NCBI GenBank assembly: GCA_016699995.1
Contig: CP064996.1
Coordinates: 837,747-901,746, forward strand
Source of the DNA: a bacterium
GTDB lineage: Bacteria > Patescibacteriota > Doudnabacteria > UBA920
Direction of reading: 5' to 3'
DNA length: 64,000 nt
Program-made: the position numbers and the translations under genes
Notes under the pieces: generated by a model
Database searches by the model: none
What the model was told of the DNA's origin: nothing
Seen by the model: the letters and a program-made list of their open reading frames with translations, nothing else
Shown here: in pieces, positions 2,594 to 61,918 of the stretch
Numbering within the stretch: position 1 is the stretch's first letter
How the letters are laid out: each line of letters begins with the position of its first letter

Positions 2594-2594
2594 A

Positions 2595-3014: not shown

Positions 3015-3120
3015 ATTGTTGTTTAAAATAATTCCGGAGGGAAAATCATATAATTTTGCCCCCGGAATTATCCCGCATATCAATTCAACCTAAAGGAAAA
3101 ATCTGAATGCGGGAAAAACT

Positions 3121-3624: not shown

Positions 3625-3671
3625 TAAATCGGCTGGAATTCATTAACCTTATTGTACTATACAGATCGCGA

Positions 3672-4136: not shown

Positions 4137-4139
4137 ATA

Positions 4140-4994: not shown

Positions 4995-4997
4995 ATT

Positions 4998-5453
4998 TTA
5001 TAGTAAGGACTGAATGATATTGACCAAAGCAAAAGCACTCACAGCCACCACTAAGCCGATGACTGCCCAGGTCAAAGTAGCCTTTGCAGATTTGATCCTC
5101 GATTCATTACCCTGATTGAAGATCAGCATAACTCCTGCGTAGATAATGACTATAGTAGATACCATGGCAATTATCATTAGCAACCAATTGATAAGCTTCG
5201 CGACTAAATCAGAAACATCTCCGCTATTGGAAGGGTTTTTAATGCTTAAAGAACCTTCCCAGTCGACACCATCATAAGTGCGAGCAACATAGCCAGAACC
5301 TTCCTGAGGCTTGGTAGTGGAGGTAGCTGGAGGCTTTACAGTAGAAGTGGCGAGGTCCTTCGGCTTTGGCGGTTCGACCGCGAGCACTTGGACAGGTGCC
5401 AACAAATAAATACTGAAAGAAAGTAATATCAAAATTTTCTTAAGTACTCTCAT
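4998..5453 (-). CDS. secreted protein with C-terminal TrbC/VirB2-like pilin domain (paralog 6 of 7)
   Basis: ORF; signal peptide MRVLKKILILLSFSIYLLAPVQVLA; C-terminal IIYAGVMLIFNQGNESRIKSAKATLTWAVIGLVVAVSAF. Confidence 0.7.
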   Translation of the reverse strand: MRVLKKILILLSFSIYLLAPVQVLAVEPPKPKDLATSTVKPPATSTTKPQEGSGYVARTYDGVDWEGSLSIKNPSNSGDVSDLVAKLINWLLMIIAMVSTIVIIYAGVMLIFNQGNESRIKSAKATLTWAVIGLVVAVSAFALVNIIQSLL

Positions 5454-5457
5454 GATA

Positions 5458-6258
5458 TTAATCAGAATTAATATATTCTCTCGGATTACTGAGGATCAAG
5501 CCCCCATTGCGAATACCAATATTAAGCGAACCTGCAAGAAGGGAGTTAACCAAAACAAACGCAATTGCAACCAACACTAACCCACCCACTGCTCCTCCCA
5601 GCTTTCTTTTTGCTGCTGTGAGCTTAGATTGGTCGCCGCCGTTGAACTGAGAAATGATGATCTGAACCCCTGAGATAATAATAAATAAAACGGCAACCAA
5701 GCCCGCCATCGTAATAAGGTAATTGATGATAATTACCATTGCTCTAAACAGATGAGTGACATTGCATGGAGTATCTACAGTATTACCGCAAATTACAAAA
5801 CCCGACCGGCCGGATTCATCTACATCTTCTCCGGTGTCTTTATCTAAGTTTCCAGGCGGTGGCGTGCCTTCGCCTCCTTGAGGTTTATCCGGAGCCCGAT
5901 AATTATCTTTTATTGCCTTAATCACCGCGGCGCTTGCGCCGGCATCTGTTAAGGCCTTTTCGTCGGCGGAGGTCGGCTTAAAGTCGACTCCAGACTTGTT
6001 AATTTGCTTGATCAGTTCTGCTGCTGGCGGCTTCTTTTCTTTAACCATAGTCAGGACTTTTGACTTAGTCAAAGCCGTACCTGTGTAAGCCTTGCCGGAA
6101 GCTTCTTGAACTTTTGCACCGCCATCCTGCGCTTGAGCCAGCACGTCGCGCGCTGTTCCGGAAGAAATTATTAAAGCAAAAATTAAACACACCGCGGTTA
6201 ACCCCGCTAGCAGAAAAGGCCCGAAACGGCTCTTTAACTTATCATTAATGTACTTCAT
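5458..6258 (-). CDS. secreted protein with C-terminal TrbC/VirB2-like pilin domain (paralog 7 of 7)
   Basis: ORF; N-terminal TM/signal; C-terminal IIISGVQIIISQFNGGDQSKLTAAKRKLGGAVGGLVLVAIAFVLV. Confidence 0.65.
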   Translation of the reverse strand: MKYINDKLKSRFGPFLLAGLTAVCLIFALIISSGTARDVLAQAQDGGAKVQEASGKAYTGTALTKSKVLTMVKEKKPPAAELIKQINKSGVDFKPTSADEKALTDAGASAAVIKAIKDNYRAPDKPQGGEGTPPPGNLDKDTGEDVDESGRSGFVICGNTVDTPCNVTHLFRAMVIIINYLITMAGLVAVLFIIISGVQIIISQFNGGDQSKLTAAKRKLGGAVGGLVLVAIAFVLVNSLLAGSLNIGIRNGGLILSNPREYINSD

Positions 6259-22532: not shown

Positions 22533-22929
22533 TTGGCGGTGTTTTCTGGACGAAGTTCGAACATTTTTTGAGCAAAACCCCCAATAAGGAAGCCAGCCCC
22601 GCCACTGCTCGGAAACCTCGCCACACCACAGAAAAATACTCTTTGCTCTTTTCATTTTGCGCGCGCCCGATTTCTTTTTCTTCTAATGAAAAGAGTATTT
22701 TTCTGCGGTGTTCTGCCTTCCAAGTATTCAGGCAGGTGGCGGGGCTGTCCTCAATTTGATTTCGAAAAGAAAAAGCGGAATTCCCCCCAAACCCCCCTTC
22801 CGCTTTTTCTTTTCTCAAACGGAACGGGAACGGAAGCAGGCGGGCAAAAATTCCTTCCCCCCAACCCCCTTCCTTTTTGCCCGCCTGCTTGGGCTTCGCC
22901 CCCAAAACTTTTCGGCGGGACGGCGGGAC
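22533..22929. repeat. IR1-L: 397-bp GC-rich structured repeat, inverted copy of 30380..30776
   Basis: Base-by-base comparison: reverse complement matches the 30380..30776 copy with about 3 mismatches; nested palindromes and C-tract loops. Confidence 0.9.
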
Positions 22930-25625
22930 TATTTAATATTAAGCTTTTCACCTCTTTTTTCAAATGCCTCTTTTCCGCCTTCAAGTTTTAGCAATTCCTC
23001 TCTGTTTTTTGTGTCCTCAATTGTCGTTTCAATAACTTCCGTTTGCCCCGATTCATTTTTCAAAATGAAAATTTTCTCTGCATCTCCGTTGATTACAAAA
23101 TTTGCGTTATGGGTGGCAAAAATGATTTGGCGATCTGATTTTTTCTCTTTCAACAAAGGCACAAGATAATTCGCAATCAACGAGCTATCAAGATGAGCCT
23201 CTGGCTCATCAATAATTAGCGGATAATTCCCAAACAAAAGTAAAATCACAACTACCGCCGTACATCTTTGTCCGAAAGACGCTTGTTCAACATCTCGATT
23301 GTCATATTTGACTTGGATTATTTTGTTTAGCTTCACATCGTACAAATGTTTATCCCTAATTGCCTGAAAGATTTGAAAATTTTTCTCTTCCTTAAAAACC
23401 TCATCAAGAAATTTGGTGTATTTTTTATCGCTCTTCTGGGATTGTTGGATAATTTTTCTAACATCGTCAAATGAGTTTTTGGAAAAAGTTTGCTCATTGC
23501 CCGTTATAAATTCGCACACTTCTTTGCCTCGTTCCGTATCGTGGTACTTTGTGAAAAAATAATTGTAAAACTCTTCTGCCAGAGCAACCCAAGCACCTTT
23601 TTCGTTGAAAGAATATTCGAGTGAAATTTGCTTGATATCTTTCCCTTGATTGTCTTCAAACTGTTTCTTCAATAAATCCTGCAAGGGTTTCAATATCTCG
23701 GTAATTTTTGTTTCGTAATTTTGTTTATTTGTGCTTAATCCAGCGACAACATTTTCGAGCGTTGCAAGCACTTTTGTTTTTGCCTCAATTTGAGCGGTTA
23801 AGCTCTTAATTTCGCTTTCCAAGTTCGTTATTTTTTGTGGAGCGGATTTGATCTGCTCAACGCTTTCGGGAGTATAACCAGCTTTCTCAATTAGTGTCTT
23901 GGCTTTAGCTTCCAATTCTGTCAGAGCTTTTTTGATCTCCGATTCTTTCTTTGCTTCCTCTGCAAACTTTTCTTCTTTCAATAATTCAACCGCTTCAGCA
24001 ATCTTGGCTACTGCAAGGTCATAGGCTTTTTCGTATTCAGTTTTTTCAACTTCTTCTTTTGATTCTTCAGATTCAGATTCTGGAATTAGATCAGACAGTG
24101 AATTTTTAAGATCAGATATATTTTCTTTCCAATCTTCTAACTCCTGCAACTCTTTTGATTTATCTGTAATTCCAGTAATAACCTCGTTATATTCTTTGCT
24201 CGATAATACTTTAACGCTACTTTCAAGCGTCCTTTTTTCTTTTTCTTTTGCAATTTTTTGATCCTCAAGAGTTTTCAAATCAGAAACGGCTTGAATAATT
24301 TGACCAAGTTTGCCTTTCAAGGATTCAATTTCTTCCTCGTATTCCTCTAAAATATTACCTGCGTGCGAATTAGCTCTGTCATAAATTGCTTGCGTAAATT
24401 TAGATTTATCCCGCGCAAAAGTTTCTATTTCGCTTTGAGCTAAAAATTCAAAAATTTCAGTTCCGCCAAAGGAAAAAATATTGTTGTCATTCGGATCAAA
24501 AGAGGGGCTTAAATTATTCCAAAACTTTTTTGGAGAATCGGGGTTGTTTGAATGCAATCCCAGAAAATTCAAAATAGTGCTTTTTCCTGATCCTCTACCA
24601 CCGATAAAACAATTAAAATATGGGCTTAAGTTATATGAGCCGTTATTCCCAGCAAAACAAAACTTATCTTCGCCAACTTTTGCGTCGGTAGGAATTTTTA
24701 GAGTAATTGTGTCAATCGTGTTTATCGGCTTTTTTGGTTTTTCCTCACCAATAAAAATTCTTGTTTCTGGCTCATAAACAATTTGCTTCAATCCCTCAAA
24801 TGTTGGCTCGGCTTTAATCCAGCAATATTTTTCAATCGGTTTTGAATCTTTATCCTTTAGCTTTCCAATTGGATAATCTTGAGCGTGTGAATCGCTTCCT
24901 TTTATACAAGCCTTTTTTCGTAAAAACCAACCGCGAAACTGATCTTGTGTAAATTTTACAGTTCCGTCAGTTTTCAAATCAGATTTCCAAAGGAAAAAAT
25001 CAATTTGTTTTTGTCGTGAAGAACCTAAAACATCAGCAGTTCTTATGTAATTACTCTTTATCCACTCATCTGAATTCGGATCAATTTCATCAATACCGCC
25101 GTATTCATCATACGGAAGCCACAATAAAAATTTATCCTTAAATTTTTCGTCCTGGTTTAATTCAGTTAGCAAAGAACCGAGGGAGATTTTCTTATCTTTC
25201 AGTTTGGCTTTGTCATCATAATCGCCACTGATTTTTGTTCCGTTGCTTTTCAACCCCTTAATTAAATTTTCAATGTCAGCAATTTGTATTTGGTCATCAA
25301 AAATAATATGAAAATTGAAATGAGTTGCCCCGTTTGTTGTGGTGTTTTTGTTTTGTACGCTTTCAGTCATTCGAAATTCAACAACGGGCAGGATTTTCTT
25401 ACCGCCAACATCTAAATCGCCCTTGTCGATTTTTTCTTTGATTTGTTTGTATCCTGCTACTGAAAAATAATCATTTATCCCAATAACATCACAATCAGCG
25501 TTTTTCAGTTGAGTTTCAAATTGATCCCAAGTACCAGAAAAGCCGTCAGAAGCAGGGCTATGCACATGCAAATCCCATTTTCTCCATTCGGAGCCGATAT
25601 TTGGTTTTGGAATCTTACTGCTCAT
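22929..25625 (-). CDS. PHP-domain phosphoesterase fused to Rad50/SMC-like ABC ATPase with long coiled-coil insert
   Basis: 898 aa; N-terminal PHP-like WDLHVHSPASDG..VIGINDY; Walker A GGRGSGKST; about 400 aa coiled coil; C-terminal signature ASFGQR, Walker B LIIDEPEAHLD, H-loop IFATHNANF. Confidence 0.8.
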   Translation of the reverse strand: MSSKIPKPNIGSEWRKWDLHVHSPASDGFSGTWDQFETQLKNADCDVIGINDYFSVAGYKQIKEKIDKGDLDVGGKKILPVVEFRMTESVQNKNTTTNGATHFNFHIIFDDQIQIADIENLIKGLKSNGTKISGDYDDKAKLKDKKISLGSLLTELNQDEKFKDKFLLWLPYDEYGGIDEIDPNSDEWIKSNYIRTADVLGSSRQKQIDFFLWKSDLKTDGTVKFTQDQFRGWFLRKKACIKGSDSHAQDYPIGKLKDKDSKPIEKYCWIKAEPTFEGLKQIVYEPETRIFIGEEKPKKPINTIDTITLKIPTDAKVGEDKFCFAGNNGSYNLSPYFNCFIGGRGSGKSTILNFLGLHSNNPDSPKKFWNNLSPSFDPNDNNIFSFGGTEIFEFLAQSEIETFARDKSKFTQAIYDRANSHAGNILEEYEEEIESLKGKLGQIIQAVSDLKTLEDQKIAKEKEKRTLESSVKVLSSKEYNEVITGITDKSKELQELEDWKENISDLKNSLSDLIPESESEESKEEVEKTEYEKAYDLAVAKIAEAVELLKEEKFAEEAKKESEIKKALTELEAKAKTLIEKAGYTPESVEQIKSAPQKITNLESEIKSLTAQIEAKTKVLATLENVVAGLSTNKQNYETKITEILKPLQDLLKKQFEDNQGKDIKQISLEYSFNEKGAWVALAEEFYNYFFTKYHDTERGKEVCEFITGNEQTFSKNSFDDVRKIIQQSQKSDKKYTKFLDEVFKEEKNFQIFQAIRDKHLYDVKLNKIIQVKYDNRDVEQASFGQRCTAVVVILLLFGNYPLIIDEPEAHLDSSLIANYLVPLLKEKKSDRQIIFATHNANFVINGDAEKIFILKNESGQTEVIETTIEDTKNREELLKLEGGKEAFEKRGEKLNIK

Positions 25626-25627
25626 AT

Positions 25628-27463
25628 TTATTCTGAAAAAATTTTCACTTTTATATCTTCCTTGAGTTTATGTATTGAATTTTCATATTCCTTTATTTGA
25701 TTTTCTCTTTCTTCAATCTTTTTCATTATCTTTTTTTGTACTTCCATTGGAGGTAACGGAAAACTAAAATTTTGGATTGCACCTAATTTGATATACGCCA
25801 TAGTATTTCCCAGTTTTTGTTGTAGAACAGAATCTTTCAAAGTGTTCTTTAACACGAAATATAAGTATTTAGGTTCAATATTAACAAAATCAGTTAGAAC
25901 ATATGTTCTTTGGTATGCTTCAAATTTACCCTTAAAATAAGTTACTGTGCCAACATCTCCGTTGCCTGCTATAAGTATCGCTTCTGCATCAAATGAAAAA
26001 ACATCACTATAAGTATGATTTTGGGCGCAAGTAAAAAAAGGGTACTTTCCATTTGGATTGCCTTCATTAACATTTTTCTTTCCCGTTCTTATTTTGCAAA
26101 TGTCGCCAAGTTTAACGCTTTCCCACTTACTTTTTCCTCGGTGGTCAGTTTGAAAATATGTTTTGTAATTTAGACTAACTTCACTGTGGTTTAATATCTC
26201 GTCTTTACTTACCCAAAAAACTTTTTTGCTTGGATTCTTTTTGCCATTTTTCCAATCAGTGATTACTTGGAGGGCTTCAGGCAAATCATTTTTTTCTATT
26301 TTTTGTCGTTTTGCACCGAGATCATAGCCGTCTGCTTCAACATTAATAAACAAAATATCTTTAACTTTTTTTGAAATTGAATTGTCAAAAAAAAGTACAC
26401 TTGTTTTAATCGTTGCGGAATATGGATTAAAAATTCCTACTGGCAAAGAAACGATCGCATATAACCCATCTTCTACCATTTTTTTTCTTAACGATTGATT
26501 AGCATTGCTTGTTTGAAACATTATTCCCTCAGGGACTACAATTCCACCTCGACCACTGATATTTAAATGTTCTATGATGTAATCAACAAACAAAACTTCT
26601 GCACGATTTGCCTGTATAGAAAATCGCTTGTGTGGCACTACTCCTCCACGAGGTGTCATAAAAGGAGGATTTGCCATTATCACATCAAAAGTTTCGTCCC
26701 AACGCTTTTCACTGGTCAGCGAATCATACTCGTGAATTTTTGGCTCTGGGAATCCGTGCAGATACATATTCACAAGCGCCAATTTCACCATATCAGGCGA
26801 AATATCATAGCCTGCCAAATTATTCATCAATTTTAATTTTTCGTCTGGCGTGAGCGGTTTTTCTTTGTTGGTTTTCAAAATGTGCTTGTAGGCAGAAATC
26901 AAAAATCCAGCCGTTCCGCAAGCGGGATCAAGAATTGTTTCGTTCTTTTTTGGATCAACAACTTCAACAATAAAATCAATAATGTGGCGAGGCGTGCGGA
27001 ATTGTCCCGCGTCGCCTTGGCTTCCGAGAATAGAAAGCAAATATTCAAAAGCATTGCCTAAATTTTCGCTGTGTTCGTAATTAAATTCGTTGATCTCTTT
27101 GAGGAATAGCGAAAGCGTGCGAGGGTCGTTGTATGGCAAAAACGCGCCTTTGAAAATATCACGGAACAATTGCGGAATATGCGGATTTTTCGACATATTC
27201 GTAATTGCTTGAACATACAAATCAAGGCGTTCTTGCCCCGAAAGTTTATTGTCCAAAAGTTTCGTCCAAGCGTATTGCGAAAATCCGTTGGCGAAAAATT
27301 TTGCCTCTCCGCCGAGTTCTTCAGATTCCTTGTCCATATCGTCCATAAACTTATAGACAAGAGCGGTCGTGATTTGTTCAACTTGAGCTTTTGGGTCTGG
27401 CACTTTACCGACAAGAATTTGTCGGGCAGAGTCTAGTTTTCGTTTTGTAGTTTGATCAAGCAT
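25628..27463 (-). CDS. hsdM: N6-adenine DNA methyltransferase (HsdM-like) fused to a single target-recognition domain
   Basis: 611 aa; AdoMet motif DPACGTAGFL, catalytic NPPF; C-terminal HsdS-like TRD plus coiled-coil tail. Confidence 0.85.
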   Translation of the reverse strand: MLDQTTKRKLDSARQILVGKVPDPKAQVEQITTALVYKFMDDMDKESEELGGEAKFFANGFSQYAWTKLLDNKLSGQERLDLYVQAITNMSKNPHIPQLFRDIFKGAFLPYNDPRTLSLFLKEINEFNYEHSENLGNAFEYLLSILGSQGDAGQFRTPRHIIDFIVEVVDPKKNETILDPACGTAGFLISAYKHILKTNKEKPLTPDEKLKLMNNLAGYDISPDMVKLALVNMYLHGFPEPKIHEYDSLTSEKRWDETFDVIMANPPFMTPRGGVVPHKRFSIQANRAEVLFVDYIIEHLNISGRGGIVVPEGIMFQTSNANQSLRKKMVEDGLYAIVSLPVGIFNPYSATIKTSVLFFDNSISKKVKDILFINVEADGYDLGAKRQKIEKNDLPEALQVITDWKNGKKNPSKKVFWVSKDEILNHSEVSLNYKTYFQTDHRGKSKWESVKLGDICKIRTGKKNVNEGNPNGKYPFFTCAQNHTYSDVFSFDAEAILIAGNGDVGTVTYFKGKFEAYQRTYVLTDFVNIEPKYLYFVLKNTLKDSVLQQKLGNTMAYIKLGAIQNFSFPLPPMEVQKKIMKKIEERENQIKEYENSIHKLKEDIKVKIFSE

Positions 27464-27473
27464 AATTTTTTGG

Positions 27474-29990
27474 TTACCTCATATAAACATTAACGGGAAC
27501 ATAGTCTTTCACATATTCAGGGACAGTTTCCCGCCAGCCGTTTAATTCCTTAAATTCCGACATTGTAAATCCAGCGTACACATTCAATTCCGCAAATTGT
27601 TTTTTGTTGATAATCTCGCGAAATTTTTCGTCTGTAACATACGCTTTCAGATAATTTTTGATATGCGGAACATATTTGCTTTCGGGCTTGTAGATTGAGA
27701 TAAACTTTTCGCATTCTTCTTCCAGTTTTTCGTCTTTGGATTTGAAAACATCAATCAAGCCGAAAGCTCTTTCCAAAAATTCACGCCAAGAAATACGGCG
27801 ATCAAGATTTTCGCTCTTGCGGATTTTTTCAAGATTCAGGAATAATTGCGGTTTGTCTTCGTATTTGTCGCGCATAATCTGCACGGCTTTGTCCCATTGC
27901 TCATTTTCCACGGCAGATTTTACTTCCGTGTCTTTTTGCAATTCTTCACGGGCTTTTTCAAAAAGTTTGCGATCAACTTTCATTCCCTCGATTCCGACAG
28001 GCGTTTCGGTAAGGGATTTTACTTTGTCGGGATTAAAAACTTCTATTTCATCAATATCAACGCCGACAGGTCCCTCTCCGCCAGTTCCTTTTTGTTTGAT
28101 TGGTAATTGCAAAATCTCGTCATAATCAAACTTTTCTTCAAAGTATTCGCAGTTTGCGAAGAAATCGAAAAATTTGAAATGATCTTTTGGCTTTTTGTGT
28201 TTCTCGCCATATTCGTCGGTATATTCAAAAGTGAATTTTCTTGTGCCTCGTCCTTTGATCTGAATAAAATCAGTCGGCGAAAAGATTGGGCGCATAAGCG
28301 CAAGATTCAAAATATCTTGGCAATCATAACCAGTCGTCATCATTCCGACAGTTACGCAAATTCTCGTTTTGCTGGATTTGTAGTTTTCCAAAAACTTGGT
28401 GTGTCCGTTTAGGTTGTTGTTGGCAAAATTGATTGTGAATTGCTGGCTGTCCGCAATATTTGAGGTGATTTGCACGGCAAAATCGGAATTGTATTTGTCG
28501 GGCCAAAGTTGGCTCGCCATTTGGTTGAGCGTTTGCGTTATTTTGGAAGCGTGCTTTTGACTGACGCAAAAGACAATAGTTTTGCCGATTTCACCGCTTA
28601 TCGGGTCTTTAAGAGAATTTTCAATGAGTGTCTGGCAAAAGACGCGATTTGTTTTTTCGGAAAAGAATTTCTTTTCAAAATCCTTTTGGAAAAATGTTTC
28701 TTCACTTTCTGTGCCATTCTCATCTTCAACCATAACCGCATAGCCCTTTTCCGATAGCAATTCGGTAGTGATGTCGGTTCGCGCGTCTGAAACGATAGGG
28801 TTGATCAAAAATCCTTCCTTTACGCCGTCAAGCAAACTGAAACGGAAAGTCGGCTCGCCATTTTTACAGCCAAAAGTCGTATAAGTGTCCAAGAGTTGCC
28901 GTCTTTCCCAAGCTCGTGGGTCTTTTTGTGATAATTTTTGCGGATCAACATTTTTCAAATAATCTTTCGGTGTTGCGGTTAAGCCCAATTTGTAGCCGAT
29001 AAAATATTCAAAAACTGCTCGCGAGTTTCCGCCTATTGCTCGGTGTGATTCATCGGCGATAATCAAATCAAAATCAGTCGGCGAGAAAAGTTTTTTATAT
29101 TTATCTTGCGCCGAAAGACTTTGAACTGTTGAAATGACAATTTCCGCTTTTTTCCAGTCGTCGCGGTTTTGCTTGTAAATAACAGAAGAAAAGTCATTGC
29201 TCAAATAGCGGACAAAGTTTTTATGGGCTTGGTCTTCCAATTCTAAACGATCAACCAAAAACAGAATTCTTTTAGCGTTGCCTGTTCGTAAAAACAGTTT
29301 GATAACGGCGGCGGAAATTAGAGTTTTTCCTGTGCCTGTCGCCATTTCAAAAAGAAAGCGATCATTTCCAGCTTCGGCGGACTTTTGCAAGGCGTGAATT
29401 GCTTTGAGTTGATACGGGCGCAAAATTCGCAAATTTTCGTCCCAAAGATATTGTTCACGAGTATCTTCTTTCTGATAACGAGGATCGTCTTTGAAATTTG
29501 GATTTTGCGTGAGGGCGATATAATCATCATTGACTTCCTCGTCTGCTAAACGCTGATTGTTGGGCTTAAAATCCTGCCTGTGCTTCAAAGATTCTTGCGT
29601 TGGAAATTCTGTGATAATTTCAGGATCGCCTCGTTCCAAATCCCAAAAATAATGAAGGTTGCCGTTTGAGAGAATTACAAAACGGGCGTTTTCAGTGTGA
29701 GCGTATTTTCTGGCTTGTTCTTTTCCGTCCAGTGGGTTTTTGTCTTCTTTTTTGGCTTCCAGAATAACGAGCGGGAAACCTTTTTCATCGAGCAATAAAA
29801 AATCAATAAAGCCGTTTTTTGTGGATTCAAAATCTTCACCAAAAGCGTCAATGTCTTTTTGGGTAAGTTTTACATTCGGTTCAAGCGAAATGTTTGCTTG
29901 TCCTTTTTCATTATCAAAAAATCGCCAGCCTGCTTGTTCAAGCAGTTTGTTTATTTTTATTCGCGCTTTTGCTTCTTTAGTATTTGCCAT
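27474..29990 (-). CDS. hsdR: restriction endonuclease R subunit (HsdR-like: PD-(D/E)xK nuclease + SF2 helicase)
   Basis: 838 aa; N-terminal nuclease FIDFLLLDEKGFPLVILEAKK; helicase motif I EMATGTGKT, motif II LIIADESHR. Confidence 0.85.
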   Translation of the reverse strand: MANTKEAKARIKINKLLEQAGWRFFDNEKGQANISLEPNVKLTQKDIDAFGEDFESTKNGFIDFLLLDEKGFPLVILEAKKEDKNPLDGKEQARKYAHTENARFVILSNGNLHYFWDLERGDPEIITEFPTQESLKHRQDFKPNNQRLADEEVNDDYIALTQNPNFKDDPRYQKEDTREQYLWDENLRILRPYQLKAIHALQKSAEAGNDRFLFEMATGTGKTLISAAVIKLFLRTGNAKRILFLVDRLELEDQAHKNFVRYLSNDFSSVIYKQNRDDWKKAEIVISTVQSLSAQDKYKKLFSPTDFDLIIADESHRAIGGNSRAVFEYFIGYKLGLTATPKDYLKNVDPQKLSQKDPRAWERRQLLDTYTTFGCKNGEPTFRFSLLDGVKEGFLINPIVSDARTDITTELLSEKGYAVMVEDENGTESEETFFQKDFEKKFFSEKTNRVFCQTLIENSLKDPISGEIGKTIVFCVSQKHASKITQTLNQMASQLWPDKYNSDFAVQITSNIADSQQFTINFANNNLNGHTKFLENYKSSKTRICVTVGMMTTGYDCQDILNLALMRPIFSPTDFIQIKGRGTRKFTFEYTDEYGEKHKKPKDHFKFFDFFANCEYFEEKFDYDEILQLPIKQKGTGGEGPVGVDIDEIEVFNPDKVKSLTETPVGIEGMKVDRKLFEKAREELQKDTEVKSAVENEQWDKAVQIMRDKYEDKPQLFLNLEKIRKSENLDRRISWREFLERAFGLIDVFKSKDEKLEEECEKFISIYKPESKYVPHIKNYLKAYVTDEKFREIINKKQFAELNVYAGFTMSEFKELNGWRETVPEYVKDYVPVNVYMR

Positions 29991-29994
29991 AGTT

Positions 29995-30204
29995 TTATTT
30001 CATTAAATCATCAAGGGAAACGCCGAGGGCGTCCGCGATTTTTTTGACTGTATCAATGGTGGGGTTGGGAGTAGAGCCAGCTTCAATCTTGGCGATTGTA
30101 TGAAAAGCCAAATCCGCCTTTTTTGAAAGCTGATCTTGCGAAATGCCGAGCTTGTTTCGGTATTTCTTTATATTGTCGCCAATTGTGGATTTTTCGTTTG
30201 ACAT
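29995..30204 (-). CDS. XRE-family HTH regulator (candidate controller protein of the restriction operon)
   Basis: 69 aa; HTH LGISQDQLSKKADLAFHTIAKIE; first gene of the tightly packed operon. Confidence 0.8.
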   Translation of the reverse strand: MSNEKSTIGDNIKKYRNKLGISQDQLSKKADLAFHTIAKIEAGSTPNPTIDTVKKIADALGVSLDDLMK

Positions 30205-30263
30205 AATCGTATAGTTTTACTATTATAGTTGTATAGTATTAAAAACATCACTGATTTATAGTT

Positions 30264-30292
30264 AGTATATGGAATTTTTATCAATTAGTCAA
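30264..30292 (-). promoter_or_regulatory. sigma70-like promoter candidate for the controller-hsdR-hsdM-PHP/ABC operon (TTGACT, 17-nt spacer, TATACT)
   Basis: Hexamers on minus strand about 60 nt upstream of HTH start; leader contains ACTATA direct/inverted repeats. Confidence 0.35.
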
Positions 30293-30379
30293 ACAAAATT
30301 AGGGAGTTCCTTTGATATAACGCGCGCACGGGTGGGTGGGGCAAGCGTTATTCCTCTTTTATCCTCTCTTTTGTTTTCT

Positions 30380-30776
30380 GTCCCGCCGTCCCGCCGAAAA
30401 GTTTTGGGGGCGAAGCCCAAGCAGGCGGGCAAAAAGGAAGGGGGTTGGGGGGAAGGAATTTTTGCCCGCCTGCTTCCGATCCCGTTCCGTTTGAGAAAAG
30501 AAAAAGCGGAAGGGGGGTTTGGGGGGAATTCCGCTTTTCCTTTTCGAAATCAAATTGTGGACAGCCCCGCCACCTGCCTGAATACTTGGAAGGCAGAACA
30601 CCGCAGAAAAATACTCTTTTCATTAGAAGAAAAAGAAATCGGGCGCGCGCAAAATGAAAAGAGCAAAGAGTATTTTTCTGTGGTGTGGCGAGGTTTCCGA
30701 GCAGTGGCGGGGCTGGCTTCCTTATTGGGGGTTTTGCTCAAAAAATGTTCGAACTTCGTCCAGAAAACACCGCCAA
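30380..30776. repeat. IR1-R: 397-bp GC-rich structured repeat, inverted copy of 22533..22929
   Basis: Two long hairpins with G-tract loops (GGGGGTTGGGGGG and GGGGGGTTTGGGGGG) plus a 14-bp-arm palindrome GAAAAATACTCTTT..AAAGAGTATTTTTC. Confidence 0.9.
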
Positions 30777-30903
30777 TTTTCACTTTTTGTGAAATCGTAA
30801 GGAATTGCCTCGGCGCAAAGCGCCTCGGCATGGTATTTTTCCGCAATTTTGAAGGCATTTTTGAAATCCAAAAACAAAGTGCGGTCGGCAATGCGGAAGT
30901 TCG
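30770..30903. repeat. IR2-L: 134-bp repeat, inverted copy of 32387..32520; overlaps IR1-R by the heptamer CCGCCAA
   Basis: Exact reverse-complement match to the recombinase 3' end / tRNA-Ser junction copy. Confidence 0.85.
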
Positions 30904-31017
30904 CAGAGCGAAGCTCTGGCAAAATGAAATTTTGCAAACCAATCTTTTTTCTTTTGCTTTCAGCGAAAGGTTGAGCGCATTTTTCTTTGATTGCCCAAAA
31001 GCTAATCTAAAAACAAT

Positions 31018-32631
<1,614 letters not shown>

Positions 32632-44317: not shown

Positions 44318-45004
44318 TTATAAAGACTCAGAAATTATATCTAATGCTTGTTTAATTTTCAATAGCTTACGAGTCAAACATAAACTACTATTTGAATACA
44401 TTTTTCTTAAAATAACCAAGCTCTCTTTTTTGCCATACCTTAATTGATAAACAGAAGAGTTCTTATTTTTACTAATGTGACCAGAGACTCTATATTTTAA
44501 ACTGTTTTGTACCCGTAACCAGTTAATATGATTTTCGCTAGCCGACATAAAAACTAAATAAAACAGAAAACTGGAAGGCCATCTTTTATCTTTGTAAGAA
44601 TAAAAGGTTCCGTCTCCATCAAAATGACCCCTCAAAAAGTCATCATAATATCGTTTTGGAATTTTGACTTCTGCTATAACTTTTGACTTACTAGGCATCA
44701 AGCCGATAGATAGTAAAAACTTATAAAGATTTATACTACCAAACTGTAAAAAGTAGCAGGTGGTTTTAGGTTCTGCACCTCGGATTTTGAGAGATATTTT
44801 ATTGGTTAAGTTAAGAGTATTTTTAACTATATTGACTAACTCTATATCCTTAGACGTAAAATTAATATGCCTACCATCCTTGGAAAGATTTCCATCAGTA
44901 ACGATTAACCCAATAACATAAGCAAAATCAGGGGACCATACAATTTTTTCAAAATGATTAGTGCTCATATCGATATCATACCTCAAGGCGTTAGCGTATA
45001 CCAA
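44318..45004 (-). CDS. LAGLIDADG-family homing endonuclease (two-motif, free-standing)
   Basis: Motif 1 VIGLIVTDGNLSKDG and motif 2 FLRGHFDGDGTF; stop 4 nt from tRNA-Leu 5' end. Confidence 0.75.
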   Translation of the reverse strand: MVYANALRYDIDMSTNHFEKIVWSPDFAYVIGLIVTDGNLSKDGRHINFTSKDIELVNIVKNTLNLTNKISLKIRGAEPKTTCYFLQFGSINLYKFLLSIGLMPSKSKVIAEVKIPKRYYDDFLRGHFDGDGTFYSYKDKRWPSSFLFYLVFMSASENHINWLRVQNSLKYRVSGHISKNKNSSVYQLRYGKKESLVILRKMYSNSSLCLTRKLLKIKQALDIISESL

Positions 45005-45162: not shown

Positions 45163-45448
45163 GCCCTGGTAGCTCAGTGGTAGAGCAGACGCCTGAATCT
45201 TCGGGCCATGCGAGAGTAATTTTGCAATGCAAATCGGGTGAACTCGGGGAACATCTAAATACATTTAGACAATCCCGAGCCAAGCCAAGAACGGGTTAAT
45301 ACTTCTTGGAAGGTGTAGAGACTAGTAGGTGAGCCCAACAATAATCCTACGGATAGCGCCCGACTTCCTTTCCAAAGGAAGATGATATAGTCCAAAATGA
45401 CGCAGGAAGAGCGTCGTGTCGTCAGTTCAATTCTGACCCGGGGCACCA
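45163..45448 (+). tRNA. tRNA-Phe (anticodon GAA) interrupted by a 211-nt group I intron in the anticodon loop
   Basis: 5' exon GCCCTGGTAGCTCAGTGGTAGAGCAGACGCCU; 3' exon GAAGAGCGTCGTGTCGTCAGTTCAATTCTGACCCGGGGCACCA; exons join to a canonical tRNA. Confidence 0.8.
45195..45405 (+). ncRNA. group I self-splicing intron (tRNA-type, IC3-like)
   Basis: Core elements GGTGTAGAGACTAG and GATGATATAGTCC (P7 strands GACUA/UAGUC), GAGCCAAGCC; guide sequence UCUUCGGGC pairs with both exon ends; terminal G precedes 3' exon. Confidence 0.75.
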
Positions 45449-51941: not shown

Positions 51942-52015
51942 GGGGCGGGTCCCTGGTTGGGCAGGATAGACTCGTCACCCTATCCCAGCGGGTTCGATTC
52001 CCGTCCGCTCCACCA
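51942..52015 (+). ncRNA. tRNA-like element with canonical acceptor stem (G3:U70), T-arm and CCA but non-canonical anticodon arm
   Basis: 74 nt; GGGGCGG..GCGGGTTCGATTCCCGT CCGCTCC A CCA; central region folds as 4-6 bp stem with 10-nt loop; partial inverted copy at about 52057..52080. Confidence 0.4.
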
Positions 52016-52082
52016 CTCTTGAAAAAGAGTTCATATGCATGGTATGATGTGCATGACGAGTCTATCCTAAACAGGACCCAAT

Positions 52083-55592: not shown

Positions 55593-55814
55593 ATGAAAAA
55601 GATTATCGAAAACATCCGTCAAAAACCTGACCATCACAAAAACCGAATAATATTGATTATTACCGGCTCTGTTGCGTTTGTACTAGTGATCATATGGATC
55701 ATAATCGGCATCCCCGATAGGGAAGGCAGGAGCACAGACGTAATAGACGACTTTACAACGAATGTAGAAGAAAGCAAAGATACTTTACCGAAATTATTTG
55801 AAAGCAATAACTAA
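55593..55814 (+). CDS. hypothetical small membrane protein
   Basis: 73-aa ORF with one TM helix, immediately upstream of gyrA. Confidence 0.4.
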   Translation: MKKIIENIRQKPDHHKNRIILIITGSVAFVLVIIWIIIGIPDREGRSTDVIDDFTTNVEESKDTLPKLFESNN

Positions 55815-58297
55815 TGGCCAAAAAGAATCCTAGTGACAGCGAAATTGCTGTTGCAGACAACAATTTAGGAGTGATTAAGCAGCGCTTCCTCGAACAGGAA
55901 ATGCAGGAATCATATTTGGATTACGCGATGAGCGTAATCGTTTCCCGCGCTTTACCAGACGTGCGCGATGGACTTAAGCCGGTTCACCGCCGCATTTTAT
56001 ACGCAATGCATTCCATGGGTCTGCGCTCCGGTGGAAAAACCACTAAGTCAGCAAAAGTAGTTGGTGAAGTATTGGGTAAATACCACCCTCACAGCGATAC
56101 CGCAGTATACGACACCATGGTTGGTTTGGCGCAAGTGTTTAGTATGCGCTACCCATTGGTTATCGGCCAGGGTAACTTTGGCTCTATGGATGGAGACAAT
56201 GCCGCGGCCATGCGTTACACAGAAGCCAAAATGAGCCCGTTTGCCGAAGCTATTTTAGAAGATATCGAAAAAGATACTGTTGATTTCCGCCCTAACTACG
56301 ACGCTACCGAAAAGGAACCAACAGTGCTTCCTGGCAAGCTGCCAAACTTGTTACTAAACGGTACCTTAGGCATTGCCGTAGGTATGGCCACCGACATCCC
56401 TCCTCATAACCTCGTAGAAGTAGCGGATGCTATCACTGCTGTTATAGACAACCCGGAAGTCTCTATCGATGAGCTTACCGATATTGTAAAGGGTCCAGAC
56501 TACCCAACCGGCGGCATTATTTATGACCGCAAAGCCATTAAAGAAGCTTATACCACCGGCAAAGGCGGTATTGTCACGCGCGGCAAGACCGAGATCGAAG
56601 AAATGGCCAATGGCCAAATGCGGATCCTGATTACCGAAATCCCTTATCGCGTAAATAAAGCGACCATGCTCGAAAAGATCGCATTGTTAGTTCAAGAAAA
56701 GAAACTTGAAGGCATTAAAGACGTGCGTGACGAAAGCGACAAAGATGGCGTGCGCGTAGTTGTCGAACTTAAAAAAGGCGCGCTGGCCAATAAAATCTTA
56801 AACCAGTTGTTTAAGTTCACCCAGCTGCAAGACACTTTCCACATGAATACCCTGGCCTTGGTAGATGGAATCGAACCGCACGTACTGAATTTAAAAACTA
56901 TTTTAGAAAAATACATCGAACATCGTCAGGTTGTTGTTCGCCGCCGTACAGCTTACGAGCTTCGCAAGGCAGAAGAACGCGCACATGTATTAGAAGGCTT
57001 AAAAATCGCTCTCGACAACATCGATGCAGTCATTAAAACCATTCGCGCAAGCAAAGACCGTGTTGAGGCGCATGCCAATTTAGTAAAGAAATTTAAGTTA
57101 TCAGATATTCAGGCCAGCGCCATCCTCGACATGCGCTTGCAAACCTTAGCCGGACTAGAACGCAAGAAAATTGAAGACGAGCTGAATGAAAAGCTAAAAC
57201 TAATCAAAGAGCTAAAAGGGATTTTAGCTTCCGAAAAGAAAATTCTGGGAATCATCAAAGACGAAGTTACCGAACTAAAGGACAAATTTGGCGACGAACG
57301 CCGCACCCAAATTGTTGCTCAGGGCACTGGCGACTTTAGTGCCGAGGATTTGATCCCGGAAGATAATGTAATCATCTCTACTACCAAGTCAGGCTACATC
57401 AAACGCCAGTCCCCAGACACTTATCGCCAGCAAAGCCGTGGAGGCAAAGGTGTTATTGGCCAGACTCTTAAAGAAGAAGATGTGGTGGATTCCGTACTCT
57501 CTGCTTCTACCCACGATGACATCATGTTCTTCACCAACAAAGGGCGTTTGCTTGTAACCAAAGCTTACGAGCTGCCAGAGAGCAGCCGCACTAGCAAAGG
57601 CCAAGCTCTAGTTAATTTCCTGCAGTTGGCACCAGAGGAATTTGCAACAGCCGTTCTGGCTTTGTCTAAAAAGAGTGAAGCCCAGTTCCTAGTTATGGCC
57701 ACCCGCAATGGCTTAATTAAGAAGGTAAAGCGCGATGAATTCGTTAAAGTCCGCAAATCCGGCATTATCGCCATTAACCTCAAGCCAGATGATGAACTGC
57801 GATGGGTTAAAACCACTTCTGGAGAAGATGAAATCATGCTTTCGACCGAAGACGGCCAGGCAATCCGCTTTAAAGAATCTGATGTCCGCCCAATGGGCAG
57901 AACCGCCAGCGGCGTAACCGGCGTAAAGCTGCGCAAAGGCGACCATGTAATTTCTATGGATATCATTACCAAAGACATGGAAGGACAAGGTAGGGAAGTA
58001 TTGGTTATTACTCAACATGGCTTAGGAAAGAAAACTCCGATCAAAGACTATAAAATTCAAAAGCGTTCGGGCAGCGGCATCAAGACTGTAAAGATTACTG
58101 ATAAGACCGGCAAGATCGTCTCGATGTGCATCTTGAGCAAAACTGATGAAGACAAAGACTTGCTGCTTATCTCTAAACAAGGCCAAACTATTCGCACCCC
58201 GCTAAAGACAATTTCTACACTCGGACGCGCCACTCAGGGCGTAAGAGTCATGAAGTTGAACGGTGATGATACGGTAGCCTCTGCTGCAGTCGTATAA
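55814..58297 (+). CDS. gyrA: DNA gyrase subunit A
   Basis: 827 aa; [28 protein letters not shown], active-site region, C-terminal beta-pinwheel repeats. Confidence 0.97.
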
Positions 58298-58342: not shown

Positions 58343-59620
58343 TTACCAAATTTCTTGAATAATAAAGTCATGAGCCTGCTCTCTCAAGCCATCTGCTACA
58401 GACCTATCAAGATTGATATGGACCCTATAATTACGAGGCTGGGTAACAGCTTCGGGATCGTCCGGAAACTTCTGGACCAAAAGCTCTTCAACAGTTGAGA
58501 CGCCTTCATAACCAAATACCGGCACATTAATGGCACGTTCCATGCCGTCAATGCCGACATAAACCGTAACTTGGTTAATGTCGATACCATAACGGATAGC
58601 AAACCTGTCCGCTAATTCCATTCTCATCATGGAGTCGCCAGCAATCTGCTTCATCTTTTCGCTAGGTTCGGTTGTTTTACTTCGAGCCACTTGCTCGAAC
58701 CAATTCATGCGAACGATCTTGTCCATCATTACTGGACTCGCTTCAGAAAGCAGCCTGATCATGCTAGTGTCTGTACCAAAGTAGTCTTCCATTCCGATAC
58801 AACCCTTTGCGTGAGCTTGCCAGAGTGCAGAGAACAACATGGTGCCTACAATTATATGCGGACCTTCCGAAATATCTCTATAAACCATACGGCGGGTTTT
58901 CTTCCAATCGAGCAAAACCTCTGGTACCGAGTCTTTAGTTTTTCTTATATCAATACCTAGGTTTTTCTTAAAAGCAGCCTGTAGATCAGATTTTTCAATG
59001 CCCCAGCATTGTTGTTCCTCGCTCCACTTAAAGTTAGTGGCTACCAGGGAAGGGCAACCAACCTTGCCCTTTAAGTTTGCACACATTGCATAACGATAAA
59101 CGTTATCGAGATTATCGACATCGAGATCGCCATGAACAAGCTTAGAATACGGTTCGAGATTTCCAGAAATCAATTTTACCAATGTTTCCGAATCAACACC
59201 CATATTATTTAAGGCCGATTTAGCAGACTTGCCAATCTCGCTATCGAGTAATACTTGTAGAAAAGTTTCGCCGTTGTAGCCAATATCAATTTTCATTAAC
59301 CGCTCAGTCAGGTGTGCAAAAGGGCCATTACCCCAATCGTGCATCATCGCTGCTGCTCGATACAGGTTTCCCAACTCTGTCGAAAAAAGCTCTTGGTTAT
59401 TCGCCCTTACACAACGATCTGTAAGCAAGTAAGAACCGATATTATGGTGGAAACGGCTTGGCAAAGCGCCATTCATACGAAACGCATTTGGCACTGTACC
59501 CATGGTAATGTCTCGGGCTCTCACTGCGAGATCAGAATTTACCAATCTCTGAAAATTGCCATCAAGCACGATCCAATTTAAATGCAATGGATCTTGATAT
59601 TCAACAAGTTTTTCTTCCAT
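58343..59620 (-). CDS. HD-domain phosphohydrolase (dNTP triphosphohydrolase-like)
   Basis: 425 aa; HD motif region AAMMHDWGNGPFAH. Confidence 0.65.
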   Translation of the reverse strand: MEEKLVEYQDPLHLNWIVLDGNFQRLVNSDLAVRARDITMGTVPNAFRMNGALPSRFHHNIGSYLLTDRCVRANNQELFSTELGNLYRAAAMMHDWGNGPFAHLTERLMKIDIGYNGETFLQVLLDSEIGKSAKSALNNMGVDSETLVKLISGNLEPYSKLVHGDLDVDNLDNVYRYAMCANLKGKVGCPSLVATNFKWSEEQQCWGIEKSDLQAAFKKNLGIDIRKTKDSVPEVLLDWKKTRRMVYRDISEGPHIIVGTMLFSALWQAHAKGCIGMEDYFGTDTSMIRLLSEASPVMMDKIVRMNWFEQVARSKTTEPSEKMKQIAGDSMMRMELADRFAIRYGIDINQVTVYVGIDGMERAINVPVFGYEGVSTVEELLVQKFPDDPEAVTQPRNYRVHINLDRSVADGLREQAHDFIIQEIW

Positions 59621-59775
59621 ATTTCCTCCTAAAATTACTAATTAAAATAGCAAAACCCTGAGCTTAAGTCAATGGAGGGGTATTGCTGGGAGGGCCTTTC
59701 TTCTCTATAATATATAAGACTTTAGCGCCAGATCTGAGCAGATTTACTAAATTGCCGGCGCTTTGTCTACAACAA

Positions 59776-59852
59776 GGGCGTGTAGCTCAGTTGGTTAGAG
59801 CGCCAAGCTTATACCTTGGTGGTCCATGGTTCAAGTCCATGCACGCCCACCA
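59776..59852 (+). tRNA. tRNA-Ile (anticodon UAU)
   Basis: 77 nt; anticodon stem CCAAG/CTTGG, loop CUUAUAC; T-loop GGTTCAAGTCC; discriminator A; CCA encoded. Confidence 0.8.
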
Positions 59853-59874: not shown

Positions 59875-60147
59875 ATGGATCCAGAACGACAAAAAGATAT
59901 ATTTGAAGACAAGTACGAACACAAGCTCGGCATGTCTTACGAGGAATGGCTGGCTATGGCGCCAGAAACAGAAGACCAAGCTTACGAAAAACTAGCAGAA
60001 ATAGACGGCGAACTCAAAGATATTCGCGATAAGTACGACGACGCTGCGCCGGAAGCCAAAGAAATAATGGAAGATGAACGGGATCGCTTGAAATTAGAAT
60101 ACGATATTATAGAAGAGATGTTTGGCCTAGAATTAGATGACCGCTAA
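59875..60147 (+). CDS. hypothetical acidic small protein
   Basis: 90 aa from internal Met; the longer track ORF 59683..60147 overlaps the tRNA and is rejected upstream of this Met. Confidence 0.4.
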   Translation: MDPERQKDIFEDKYEHKLGMSYEEWLAMAPETEDQAYEKLAEIDGELKDIRDKYDDAAPEAKEIMEDERDRLKLEYDIIEEMFGLELDDR

Positions 60148-60193: not shown

Positions 60194-60859
60194 ATGTTGT
60201 ATATAGTTCCGACACCACTAGGAAATTTAGATGATATAACCAATCGCGCTCGTACTGCATTAGAAGAGTGCGATTTTGTTATTGCCGAAAACCCAAGCCA
60301 AACCCATAAACTTTTTCAGTTGTTAAAGCTTCCCAAAAAAGAAGTTATACAACTAGCAGATCACAATGAAAAAATTGTTGCCACTAAAATTACTGTAAGA
60401 TTAAAAACCGAAACTGCGTGCCTAGTAAGCGATGCCGGTACTCCTACAATTTCGGACCCAGGCTTCCGCTTAGTAAGAGAATGTCGCGAACAAGGCATAG
60501 AAATAGTATCTTTACCTGGACCAAATGCAGCCATCACAGCATTGGCTGGTTCAGGACTGCCAACAGACAAATTTATTTTCGTGGGATTTTTCCCAAAGAC
60601 AGAGCCAAAGCTGATTAATATAATAGAGGAGAGTAAAGACATAGAGGCGACCTTGATAGGCTATGAGTCCCCCCAAAGAATAGTTAAAACTGTAACAGCT
60701 ATCGATAAGACTTTTCCGGATGCTAAAATATGCATGGCCAGAGAGCTAACCAAGATGCATGAAGAGTATTTAAATGGTAGTCCTAAAGCAGTACTAGAAA
60801 TACTAAACTCTCGTCAGGCAATAAAAGGGGAAATAACGTTATTAATATCTTTTAAATAA
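60194..60859 (+). CDS. rsmI: 16S rRNA (cytidine1402-2'-O)-methyltransferase RsmI
   Basis: [37 protein letters not shown] typical of RsmI. Confidence 0.85.
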
Positions 60860-60867
60860 TATTATTT

Positions 60868-61410
60868 ATGAGTGGACACAGTAAGTGGTCGACAATTAAA
60901 CGCGCCAAAGGGGCAGCCGATGCTAAAAGAGCAGTTATATTCGGTAAATTATCTAAAAAAATTAGTGTCGCCGCCCGGGAAGGCAACAGCGGGGATCCGA
61001 CCCATAACTTCCGATTGCGGGTAGAGGTGGACAAAGCCAAGGCTGCAGGAATGCCCAATGATAATATAGACAGAGCTATCAAAAAAGGCCTGGGGCTAGA
61101 TGGCAGTGCCCGTTTAGAAGAAGCTGTATACGAAGGCTATGGCCCAGGCGGATCTGCCTTTTATATAGAGGCAGTAACGGACAATAAAAACCGCACCGTT
61201 CAGAGCATTAAAACGATCTTCACCAGGAACAACGGGAATATGGGAGGTCAAGGCAGTGTAGCCTGGCAATTTAGCAAAAATAGCGAGGGAGAATTCGAAA
61301 GCAATCAGCCGCTTGAGCTGAGTGAAGAAGACTTAGCAAAGGCAGAAAAATTATACGACGCGCTGGAAAACGATGACGATGTTACTGCTGTCTATACAAA
61401 CATCGCCTAA
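60868..61410 (+). CDS. yebC: YebC/PmpR-family protein (short form)
   Basis: [29 protein letters not shown]; C-terminal [11 protein letters not shown]; shorter than typical YebC. Confidence 0.8.
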
Positions 61411-61435
61411 CCCGCCGCCCGAAAACAAATATCTT

Positions 61436-61918
61436 ATGACCATCTTAGGAATCGATCCCGGTACTGCTACTACGGGATTTGGGATCATCAACCAAAATCA
61501 ATCCAAGAAATCTCAATACGACATTTTAGAATTTGGCGTGATCTCTACATCGAAAAAGGAATCCGACCAGGAGCGCTTAAAAACTCTTTACGAAGATTTA
61601 AATTTCTTGATAAAGAAATACAAGCCGAAAAAGTTGGGGGTAGAAAAATTATTTTTTACCACCAATCAAAAAACTGCAATGGCGGTAAGTCAAGCCAGGG
61701 GAGTAGTACTACTGGCTGCAGTTAATAATGGACTGGAAATATCTGAGTTCACCCCTCTTCAGGTAAAAAACATTTTATGCGGTTATGGCAAGGCAGACAA
61801 AAAGCAAGTGCAGTTTATGATCAAGCAAACCTTCGGTTTAAAAAATACCCCAAAACCGGACGATGCAGCCGATGCCTTAGCCATTGCCCTGTGTACAGCC
61901 TGGGCTCGGAGCAAATAA
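61436..61918 (+). CDS. ruvC: crossover junction endodeoxyribonuclease RuvC
   Basis: ILGIDPGTATTGFGII N-terminus; C-terminal DAADALAIALC; start taken at internal Met. Confidence 0.9.
   Translation: MTILGIDPGTATTGFGIINQNQSKKSQYDILEFGVISTSKKESDQERLKTLYEDLNFLIKKYKPKKLGVEKLFFTTNQKTAMAVSQARGVVLLAAVNNGLEISEFTPLQVKNILCGYGKADKKQVQFMIKQTFGLKNTPKPDDAADALAIALCTAWARSK

Follow-up and report, generated by a model that had tools for sequence, protein, structure and literature searches.

An isoleucine tRNA gene with a directly encoded UAU anticodon, the probable AUA decoder of a Doudnabacteria genome

The complete genome GCA_016699995.1 (943,189 bp) belongs to the class Doudnabacteria of the Patescibacteria (CPR). 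The window, which is the whole 64-kb stretch of DNA analyzed here, corresponds to approximately 837,747–901,746 of this genome, and four of its proteins are found in NCBI as QQS22862.1–QQS22910.1. An isoleucine tRNA gene lies near its downstream end (~897,522–897,598 of the genome) within the gene order gyrA, 425-aa ORF, tRNA, 90-aa ORF, rsmI-like gene, yebC, ruvC and tyrS (Table 1). The 11 tRNAs within 64 kb suggested a phage-borne tRNA cluster, an idea rejected on account of gyrA, infB, recA, ftsK and tyrS in the window. A comM-like gene, ruvC, yebC and rbfA also mark the window as cellular, not viral.

Table 1. Coordinates of the features in the window (position 1 is the first nucleotide of the 64-kb stretch)
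Feature	Position	Strand	Basis or remark
Seven consecutive ORFs (267, 162, 167, 154, 284, 151 and 266 aa)	1802-6258	-	PF18895
Defence/mobile-element block	22929-32631		Includes an 898-aa AAA_21 (AbiEii-like) ATPase
Fused HsdM-HsdS methylase	25628-27463		
HsdR	27474-29990		
Large serine recombinase, 537 aa	31018-32631		
tRNA-Ser(cga)	32515-32604		Opposite strand to the recombinase
ORF of 228 aa with LAGLIDADG endonuclease domains, free-standing	44318-45004	-	Domain match
tRNA-Phe(GAA) with group I intron between 33 and 34	45163-45448	+	Rfam RF00028, 56.9 bits
Intron of tRNA-Phe, 211 nt	45195-45405		
Odd tRNA-like gene, 74 nt, "tRNA-?(Thr|Asp)"	51942-52015	+	ARAGORN
Reverse complement of the 5' half of the odd gene	52046-52078		30 nt downstream of the odd gene
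gyrA, upstream anchor of the conserved block	55814-58297	+	Pfam
Conserved 425-aa ORF, upstream neighbour of the tRNA	58343-59620	-	No Pfam match
TATAAT hexamer, perfect, possible promoter	59706-59711	+	Sequence reading; 64 nt upstream of the tRNA
tRNA-Ile(UAU) gene, 77 nt, CCA encoded	59776-59852	+	ARAGORN, Rfam RF00005, MFE cloverleaf
Segment GCGCCAAGCTTATACCTTGGTG, 22 nt (D-stem end, anticodon arm, variable-loop start)	59799-59820	+	Exact-pattern scan
Anticodon loop C32-U33-U34-A35-U36-A37-C38	59808-59814	+	Sequence reading, ARAGORN drawing
Anticodon TAT	59810-59812	+	Inside loop CTTATAC
ORF of 90 aa, downstream, co-oriented	59875-60147	+	No Pfam match; kept beside the tRNA in relatives
rsmI-like TP_methylase gene	60194-60859	+	Pfam
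yebC	60868-61410		Pfam; after the rsmI-like gene
ruvC	61373-61918		Pfam; after yebC

ARAGORN predicts a tRNA-Ile(tat) with exactly the bounds given in Table 1 and the anticodon at gene position 35. The full Rfam tRNA model matches the gene with 73.7 bits (E = 3e-14) against a gathering score of 29. The minimum free energy (MFE) structure is a cloverleaf with a 7-nt anticodon loop at -31.6 kcal/mol, with a z-score of -3.26 relative to dinucleotide shuffles. The acceptor stem reads as GGGCGTG/CACGCCC (7 bp), the D arm as GCTC-AGTTGGTTA-GAGC with both G18 and G19, the anticodon stem as CCAAG/CTTGG, the variable loop as TGGTC and the T arm as CATGG-TTCAAGT-CCATG, of which the T loop fits TTCRANT. 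The 3' end consists of A73 followed by the encoded CCA, and no intron interrupts the continuous 77 nt. The loop C-U-U-A-U-A-C defines the anticodon as UAU, and alternative folds give no other triplet at positions 34–36. The first-pass annotation had claimed that UAU is encoded directly through the loop CUUAUAC and had named a refolding with a different triplet as what would overturn this; ARAGORN, Rfam and the cloverleaf MFE structure all agree with the claim, and UAU stands on refolding. ARAGORN finds an encoded 3' CCA in all ten regular tRNAs of the window and in the odd tRNA-like gene, and many other CPR tRNA-Ile(UAU) genes lack it.

The gene arrangement around the tRNA is common to eight loci of related genomes (L034, L036, L043, L048, L014, L019, L047 and L060), in which most orthologous proteins share 52–92% identity and a few share less. 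The gyrA orthologues in L043, L036, L014, L060, L019 and L047 show 71–92% amino-acid identity, and orthologues of the 425-aa ORF adjoin the tRNA in L034, L036, L048, L069 and L070. The last two of these, L069 (GCA_964631145.1) and L070, are relatives found via the S1-domain protein and have an identical gene order. This shared synteny indicates vertical inheritance of tRNA-Ile(UAU) as a core gene rather than carriage by a mobile element. The 90-aa ORF starts 22 nt 3' of the tRNA gene, and so co-transcription of the two is possible. The TATAAT hexamer upstream of the tRNA may be part of a promoter, with TTGCTG located 17 nt further upstream; it is missing from the list of the consensus scan because the -35 hexamer matches at only three of six positions. 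The promoter and terminator scan around the tRNA gene yielded nothing above chance.

An exact-match scan of one genome per GTDB species found identical copies of the segment GCGCCAAGCTTATACCTTGGTG in 65 loci of other Patescibacteria, spread over many CPR classes. ARAGORN calls tRNA-Ile(tat) in these loci, apart from three in which the end of the locus truncates the gene. The record titles include Paceibacteria, Berkel-, Beckwith-, Doudna-, Uhr-, Buchanan-, Yanofsky-, Terry-, Vogel- and Yonathbacteria, Spechtbacterales and "Patescibacteria group". Because the anticodon arm was the search key, its invariance is not independent evidence. Outside this arm, all 12 acceptor-stem and T-stem pairs (7 + 5) are standard in every one of the 52 distinct sequences, and between two and five kinds of pair occur at 10 of these 12 positions; the pair 6:67, for instance, is C:G, U:A, G:C, A:U or U:G. 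The discriminator A73 is invariant among these homologues.

Some TPA metagenome-assembled genomes (MAGs) with GCGCCAAGCTTATACCTTGGTG bear the labels Saccharibacteria, Pseudomonadales or archaeon, and these labels were rejected as unreliable. Those of the Saccharibacteria type are distrusted because complete Saccharimonadia genomes almost all have one Ile and three CAU tRNAs. Labels such as "archaeon", "uncultured Pseudomonadales" and "Gammaproteobacteria" occur on loci including L002, L018, L029, L044, L055 and L059. These contigs, and many "Candidatus Saccharibacteria" TPA MAGs as well, carry a CPR-type tRNA-Ile(UAU) and CPR-like tRNA clusters, and their taxonomic labels look wrong or mapped too coarsely.

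The gene could in principle be a non-functional or recent copy, namely a pseudogene, a point mutant of another isoleucine tRNA gene or mobile-element cargo, and other parts of the window do hold features that look mobile or foreign (the serine recombinase, the type I restriction-modification genes, the group I intron and the LAGLIDADG ORF). Such an origin is very improbable, however, in view of the core block from gyrA to ruvC, whose order is kept in several related genomes, the score against the tRNA model, the compensatory changes that keep every stem pair in homologues across the phylum, and the frequent use of AUA, for which a decoder is required. In agreement with this, no close relative was seen that lacks the gene or has broken stems. 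The locus is a real, conserved isoleucine tRNA gene with a UAU anticodon.

Several other features of the window are of interest in their own right. Each of the seven consecutive ORFs near its start ends in a type IV secretion pilin-like domain, two of them below the Pfam cut-off, and this tandem array of paralogues adjoins a solute-binding protein gene. The defence/mobile-element block may be an island integrated at a tRNA gene: the 3' end of the serine recombinase gene overlaps tRNA-Ser(cga), the G+C content falls to 0.36 at 24–28 kb and the sign of the GC skew switches at 28–32 kb. The intron-bearing tRNA-Phe is missed by ARAGORN without the intron mode. It is already published, matching the entry for GCA_016699995.1 in Table S3 of PMC13011429 over 285/286 nt, and the corresponding tRNA cluster of L069–L072 has an uninterrupted tRNA-Phe. 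The free-standing LAGLIDADG ORF adjoins tRNA-Leu(gag), ~160 nt from the intron-bearing tRNA-Phe, and since the intron itself has no ORF, it could encode a homing endonuclease separated from the intron.

The odd tRNA-like gene has an 8-nt anticodon loop (CUCGUCAC) with a four-base anticodon cgtc, A73, an encoded CCA and G3:U70, the alanine identity pair. Its best Rfam match is the tRNA-like domain of tmRNA, which at 21.1 bits does not reach the gathering score of 47, and it has 28 nt where tmRNA has ~328. Together with the downstream segment that is the reverse complement of its 5' half, it folds at -55.2 kcal/mol (z = -3.2). It is absent from four relatives, including L071 with the same htrA–S1 arrangement. 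It may have been inserted recently, be the degenerate remnant of a tRNA or tmRNA, or represent a tRNA-like RNA specific to this strain.

The codon AUA accounts for 270 of the 17,313 codons in the 53 confident ORFs of the window (15.6 per 1000) and for 20.1% of the isoleucine codons. It is rare in some highly expressed genes (one in gyrA, none in the S1-domain gene and two in recA). The overall frequency counts as "high" usage on the scale of PMC12514573. The stop codons of the same ORFs are TAA in 39, TAG in 11 and TGA in 3, TGA thus being rare. Alignment of twelve window proteins with their orthologues in related loci places isoleucine opposite 53% of the window ATA sites, valine opposite 22% and leucine opposite 10%, and the ATT/ATC sites behave alike. 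At the codon level, the 207 ATA sites are opposite ATT (61), ATC (25), ATA (25) and valine codons (45), as well as leucine codons, and opposite ATG in only two cases; window ATG sites align with ATG in 246 of 375 cases. Therefore, AUA means isoleucine, not methionine.

These profiles bear on the idea that the UAU tRNA is charged with an amino acid other than isoleucine, such as methionine, which AUA specifies in many mitochondria, or that it does not distinguish AUA from AUG. Code changes occur in other CPR lineages, an unmodified U34 can pair with G, and tRNA-Ile(UAU) of Mycoplasma mobile binds AUG on E. coli ribosomes. The match between the AUA-site profile and the ATT/ATC-site profile nevertheless makes an altered meaning extremely improbable, and the identity elements of the tRNA point the same way. 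The identity set of E. coli tRNA-Ile includes A73, A37, C4:G69 and U12:A23, and all four are present in the UAU tRNA, A37 being the t6A site; the pair 29:41 is A:U, not C:G. Judged from the nucleotides, A73, C4:G69 and U12:A23 would fit charging with isoleucine.

The question of whether the UAU tRNA is the only decoder of AUA can be approached through Table S2 of PMC13011429 (Nakagawa et al. 2026), which covers 95 complete Patescibacteria genomes and gives counts per amino acid, not anticodons. For GCA_016699995.1, ARAGORN with intron detection gives two Ile and two Met tRNAs, and tRNAscan-SE gives three Ile and one Met (PMC13011429 Table S2); ARAGORN types every CAU tRNA as Met, and the fMet and Ile2 classes of tRNAscan-SE are evidently uncounted in this table. 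The intron-bearing tRNAs of this genome are tRNA-Phe and tRNA-Tyr only, with no CAU tRNA among them (PMC13011429). Since two CAU tRNAs are needed for initiator and elongator methionine, none is left as tRNA-Ile2(CAU), and we infer from the published count of two that tRNA-Ile2(CAU) is absent from GCA_016699995.1.

The two programs also disagree on this genome beyond isoleucine (tRNAscan-SE versus ARAGORN: Ile 3 versus 2, Ser 5 versus 4, Thr 4 versus 3), and therefore about three further tRNA-like genes are typed differently. The third Ile call of tRNAscan-SE leaves one Ile-type gene unaccounted for. The odd gene at 51942 may be one of the differently typed genes, and the third "Ile" gene is another.

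Across the 95 genomes, 40 have at least two non-CAU Ile tRNAs and at most two CAU tRNAs, 50 have one Ile tRNA and at least three CAU tRNAs, five have both (at least two Ile and at least three CAU tRNAs) and none has neither pattern. Fisher's test on this either/or pattern gives p ~1e-21, for genomes that are not phylogenetically independent. The UAU-type pattern is found in all seven Dojkabacteria, all 12 Microgenomatia, the single Doudnabacteria, WWE3 and UBA1384 genomes, 14 of 20 Paceibacteria, two of four ABY1 and two of five Gracilibacteria. The canonical pattern is found in 34 of 36 Saccharimonadia, all seven JAEDAM01 (SR1-type class), Kazan-3B-28, five Paceibacteria and three Gracilibacteria. 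The GCGCCAAGCTTATACCTTGGTG scan and the ARAGORN calls suggest that the second Ile gene in the census genomes is the TAT gene. Therefore, the census counts make the UAU tRNA most likely the only AUA decoder of this Doudnabacteria genome, replacing tRNA-Ile2(CAU) and TilS.

Alternatively, the UAU tRNA may be a redundant decoder, with tRNA-Ile2(CAU) and TilS also present and AUA read by both the LAU and UAU tRNAs. This arrangement has been proposed for Lactobacillus casei and L. plantarum, coexistence has been documented in some bacteria (PMC3575796), and the five census genomes that seem to carry both systems indicate that it occurs in the phylum. It is nevertheless improbable here, given that ARAGORN with intron detection counts only two CAU tRNAs in a complete genome, that no CAU tRNA is hidden among the intron-bearing ones and that both are needed for methionine. 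On the enzyme side, no match to the PP-loop motif SGGxDS was found by a regular-expression search of ORFs of at least 120 aa in the 64-kb window and 66 loci, and E. coli TilS has no tblastn match in the same sequences. A TilS profile built from the N-terminal domains of the E. coli, Geobacillus and Aquifex proteins gave at least 120 listed matches in a collection of 5.8 billion proteins, all from Aquificae, Enterobacterales and Bacillales; these are close relatives of the three queries and are uninformative on CPR. The isoleucyl-tRNA synthetase (IleRS) gene ileS is not in the 64-kb window. Tblastn with E. coli IleRS matched only two partial ORFs in the loci (L022 and L002), whose motifs are ValRS-like.

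These observations lead to the hypothesis, to which we assign a probability of roughly 0.8, that the gene is a functional chromosomal gene for a minor tRNA-Ile(UAU) that is charged with isoleucine, reads AUA and most likely replaces tRNA-Ile2(CAU)/TilS in this Doudnabacteria genome. The tRNA would be transcribed with U34 already encoded, probably receive t6A at A37, as in tRNAs reading ANN codons, and be charged with isoleucine by IleRS. AUA would then be read through a U34–A pair, and AUU and AUC would be read by tRNA-Ile(GAU) encoded elsewhere in the genome. This would replace the usual route, in which tRNA-Ile2 is transcribed with CAU and C34 is converted to lysidine by TilS, and AUA, one in five of the isoleucine codons, would depend on the UAU tRNA alone. 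By analogy with M. mobile, a ribosomal property together with competition from tRNA-Met could keep misreading of AUG low. Acceptance of the tRNA by IleRS might follow either an M. mobile-type adaptation, with Arg or Lys at the position of W905 in the E. coli enzyme, or a eukaryote-type IleRS2.

[quoted passage not shown] Its further description of the UAU tRNA as rare and known from a few reduced genomes is valid for bacteria in general and fails within Patescibacteria, where the gene is widespread (65 genomes, and the census pattern in 40 of 95). The bacterial tRNA-Ile(UAU) type is thus already known, and it looks common rather than rare in Patescibacteria. The evidence leans towards the UAU tRNA being the standard AUA decoder of most Patescibacteria classes, with lysidine mainly in a few classes; this phylum-level reading rests on the published count table and the GCGCCAAGCTTATACCTTGGTG pattern scan. 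The classes using the UAU decoder may be ABY1, Dojkabacteria, Doudnabacteria, Microgenomatia, most Paceibacteria, WWE3, UBA1384 and some Gracilibacteria, and lysidine would survive mainly in Saccharimonadia, JAEDAM01, Kazan-3B-28 and a few others.

In 2013, bacterial tRNA-Ile(UAU) was known from nine species in three clades (PMC3575796); tRNADB-CE contains 19 species with it, and the tRNAscan-SE 2.0 survey lists 17 genomes, mainly of Bifidobacterium, Mycoplasma and Neorickettsia (PMC8450103). Reviews state that the UAU anticodon has been lost from prokaryotes and that lysidine is used in almost all bacteria, and TilS is quoted in ~98% of annotated bacterial genomes. Metagenomes, in addition, contain 371 distinct tDNA-Ile(TAT) sequences of unknown origin (Taniguchi et al., PMC3575796). 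No paper on lysidine, TilS or UAU decoding in CPR/Patescibacteria was found in the library searched, and no priority is claimed. PMC13011429, the source of the census, makes no comment on such a link.

How to read AUA as isoleucine without misreading AUG is a classic decoding problem, to which the textbook bacterial answer is lysidine made by the essential TilS. The Doudnabacteria gene would be a direct UAU solution for 20% of the isoleucine codons in a CPR bacterium. If the phylum-level reading is true, TilS is missing from a large part of bacterial diversity, and the hundreds of unassigned metagenomic tDNA-Ile(TAT) sequences reported in 2013 are explained; the results obtained here suggest CPR bacteria as one of their major sources. 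The reading raises the questions of how CPR IleRS accepts U34, whether U34 is modified in organisms with few modification enzymes and what in their unusual ribosomes prevents misreading of AUG. It also bears on tRNA annotation, on TilS as a "universal" essential gene and drug target, and on the expression of CPR genes in other hosts.

Among known systems, tRNA-Ile2(UAU) of M. mobile resembles the Doudnabacteria tRNA in its encoded TAT, A37, small genome and frequent AUA, and probably also in its role, reading AUA where tRNA-Ile2(CAU)/lysidine would otherwise do so (Taniguchi et al. 2013, PMC3575796). The unmodified U34, the loss of tilS, Arg865 of IleRS and the discrimination by the ribosome have been shown experimentally in M. 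mobile. In its IleRS, Arg865 takes the place of the Trp residue stacking on base 34, and AUG is rejected with the UAU tRNA by the cognate ribosome only (PMC3575796). M. mobile is a single late-branching lineage, whereas the Patescibacteria trait spans many classes of the phylum. In Bifidobacterium and Neorickettsia, tRNA-Ile(UAU), named tRNA-Ile3(UAU) in tRNAscan-SE 2.0 (PMC8450103), replaces the CAT-type tRNA-Ile2 by a TAT gene and was recognized from genome tRNA sets, which is the same type of evidence as here; the eukaryote-type IleRS2 is a feature of those two genera.

The tRNA-Ile(UAU) of L. casei and L. plantarum reads AUA, as the Doudnabacteria tRNA would, and is redundant because tilS coexists with it, whereas the CAU partner appears to be absent from the Doudnabacteria genome. 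The suppressor tRNA-Ile1(G34U) of a Bacillus subtilis tilS mutant also reads AUA but is a laboratory mutant of the GAU gene; the Doudnabacteria gene is old and conserved. Nanoarchaeum equitans and Korarchaeum cryptofilum have a similarly direct tRNA-Ile(UAU) in another domain, the archaea. The eukaryotic cytoplasmic tRNA-Ile(UAU), again from another domain, is of the same direct type and is read as pseudouridine-A-pseudouridine; its genes need an intron 3' of the anticodon for pseudouridylation at positions 34 and 36, whereas the Doudnabacteria gene is intronless. The tRNA-Ile2(CAU)/TilS system shares the task of reading AUA as isoleucine without reading AUG. Its gene, however, encodes CAT and depends on an essential modifying enzyme, whereas the Doudnabacteria gene encodes T34, and such a step would be unneeded.
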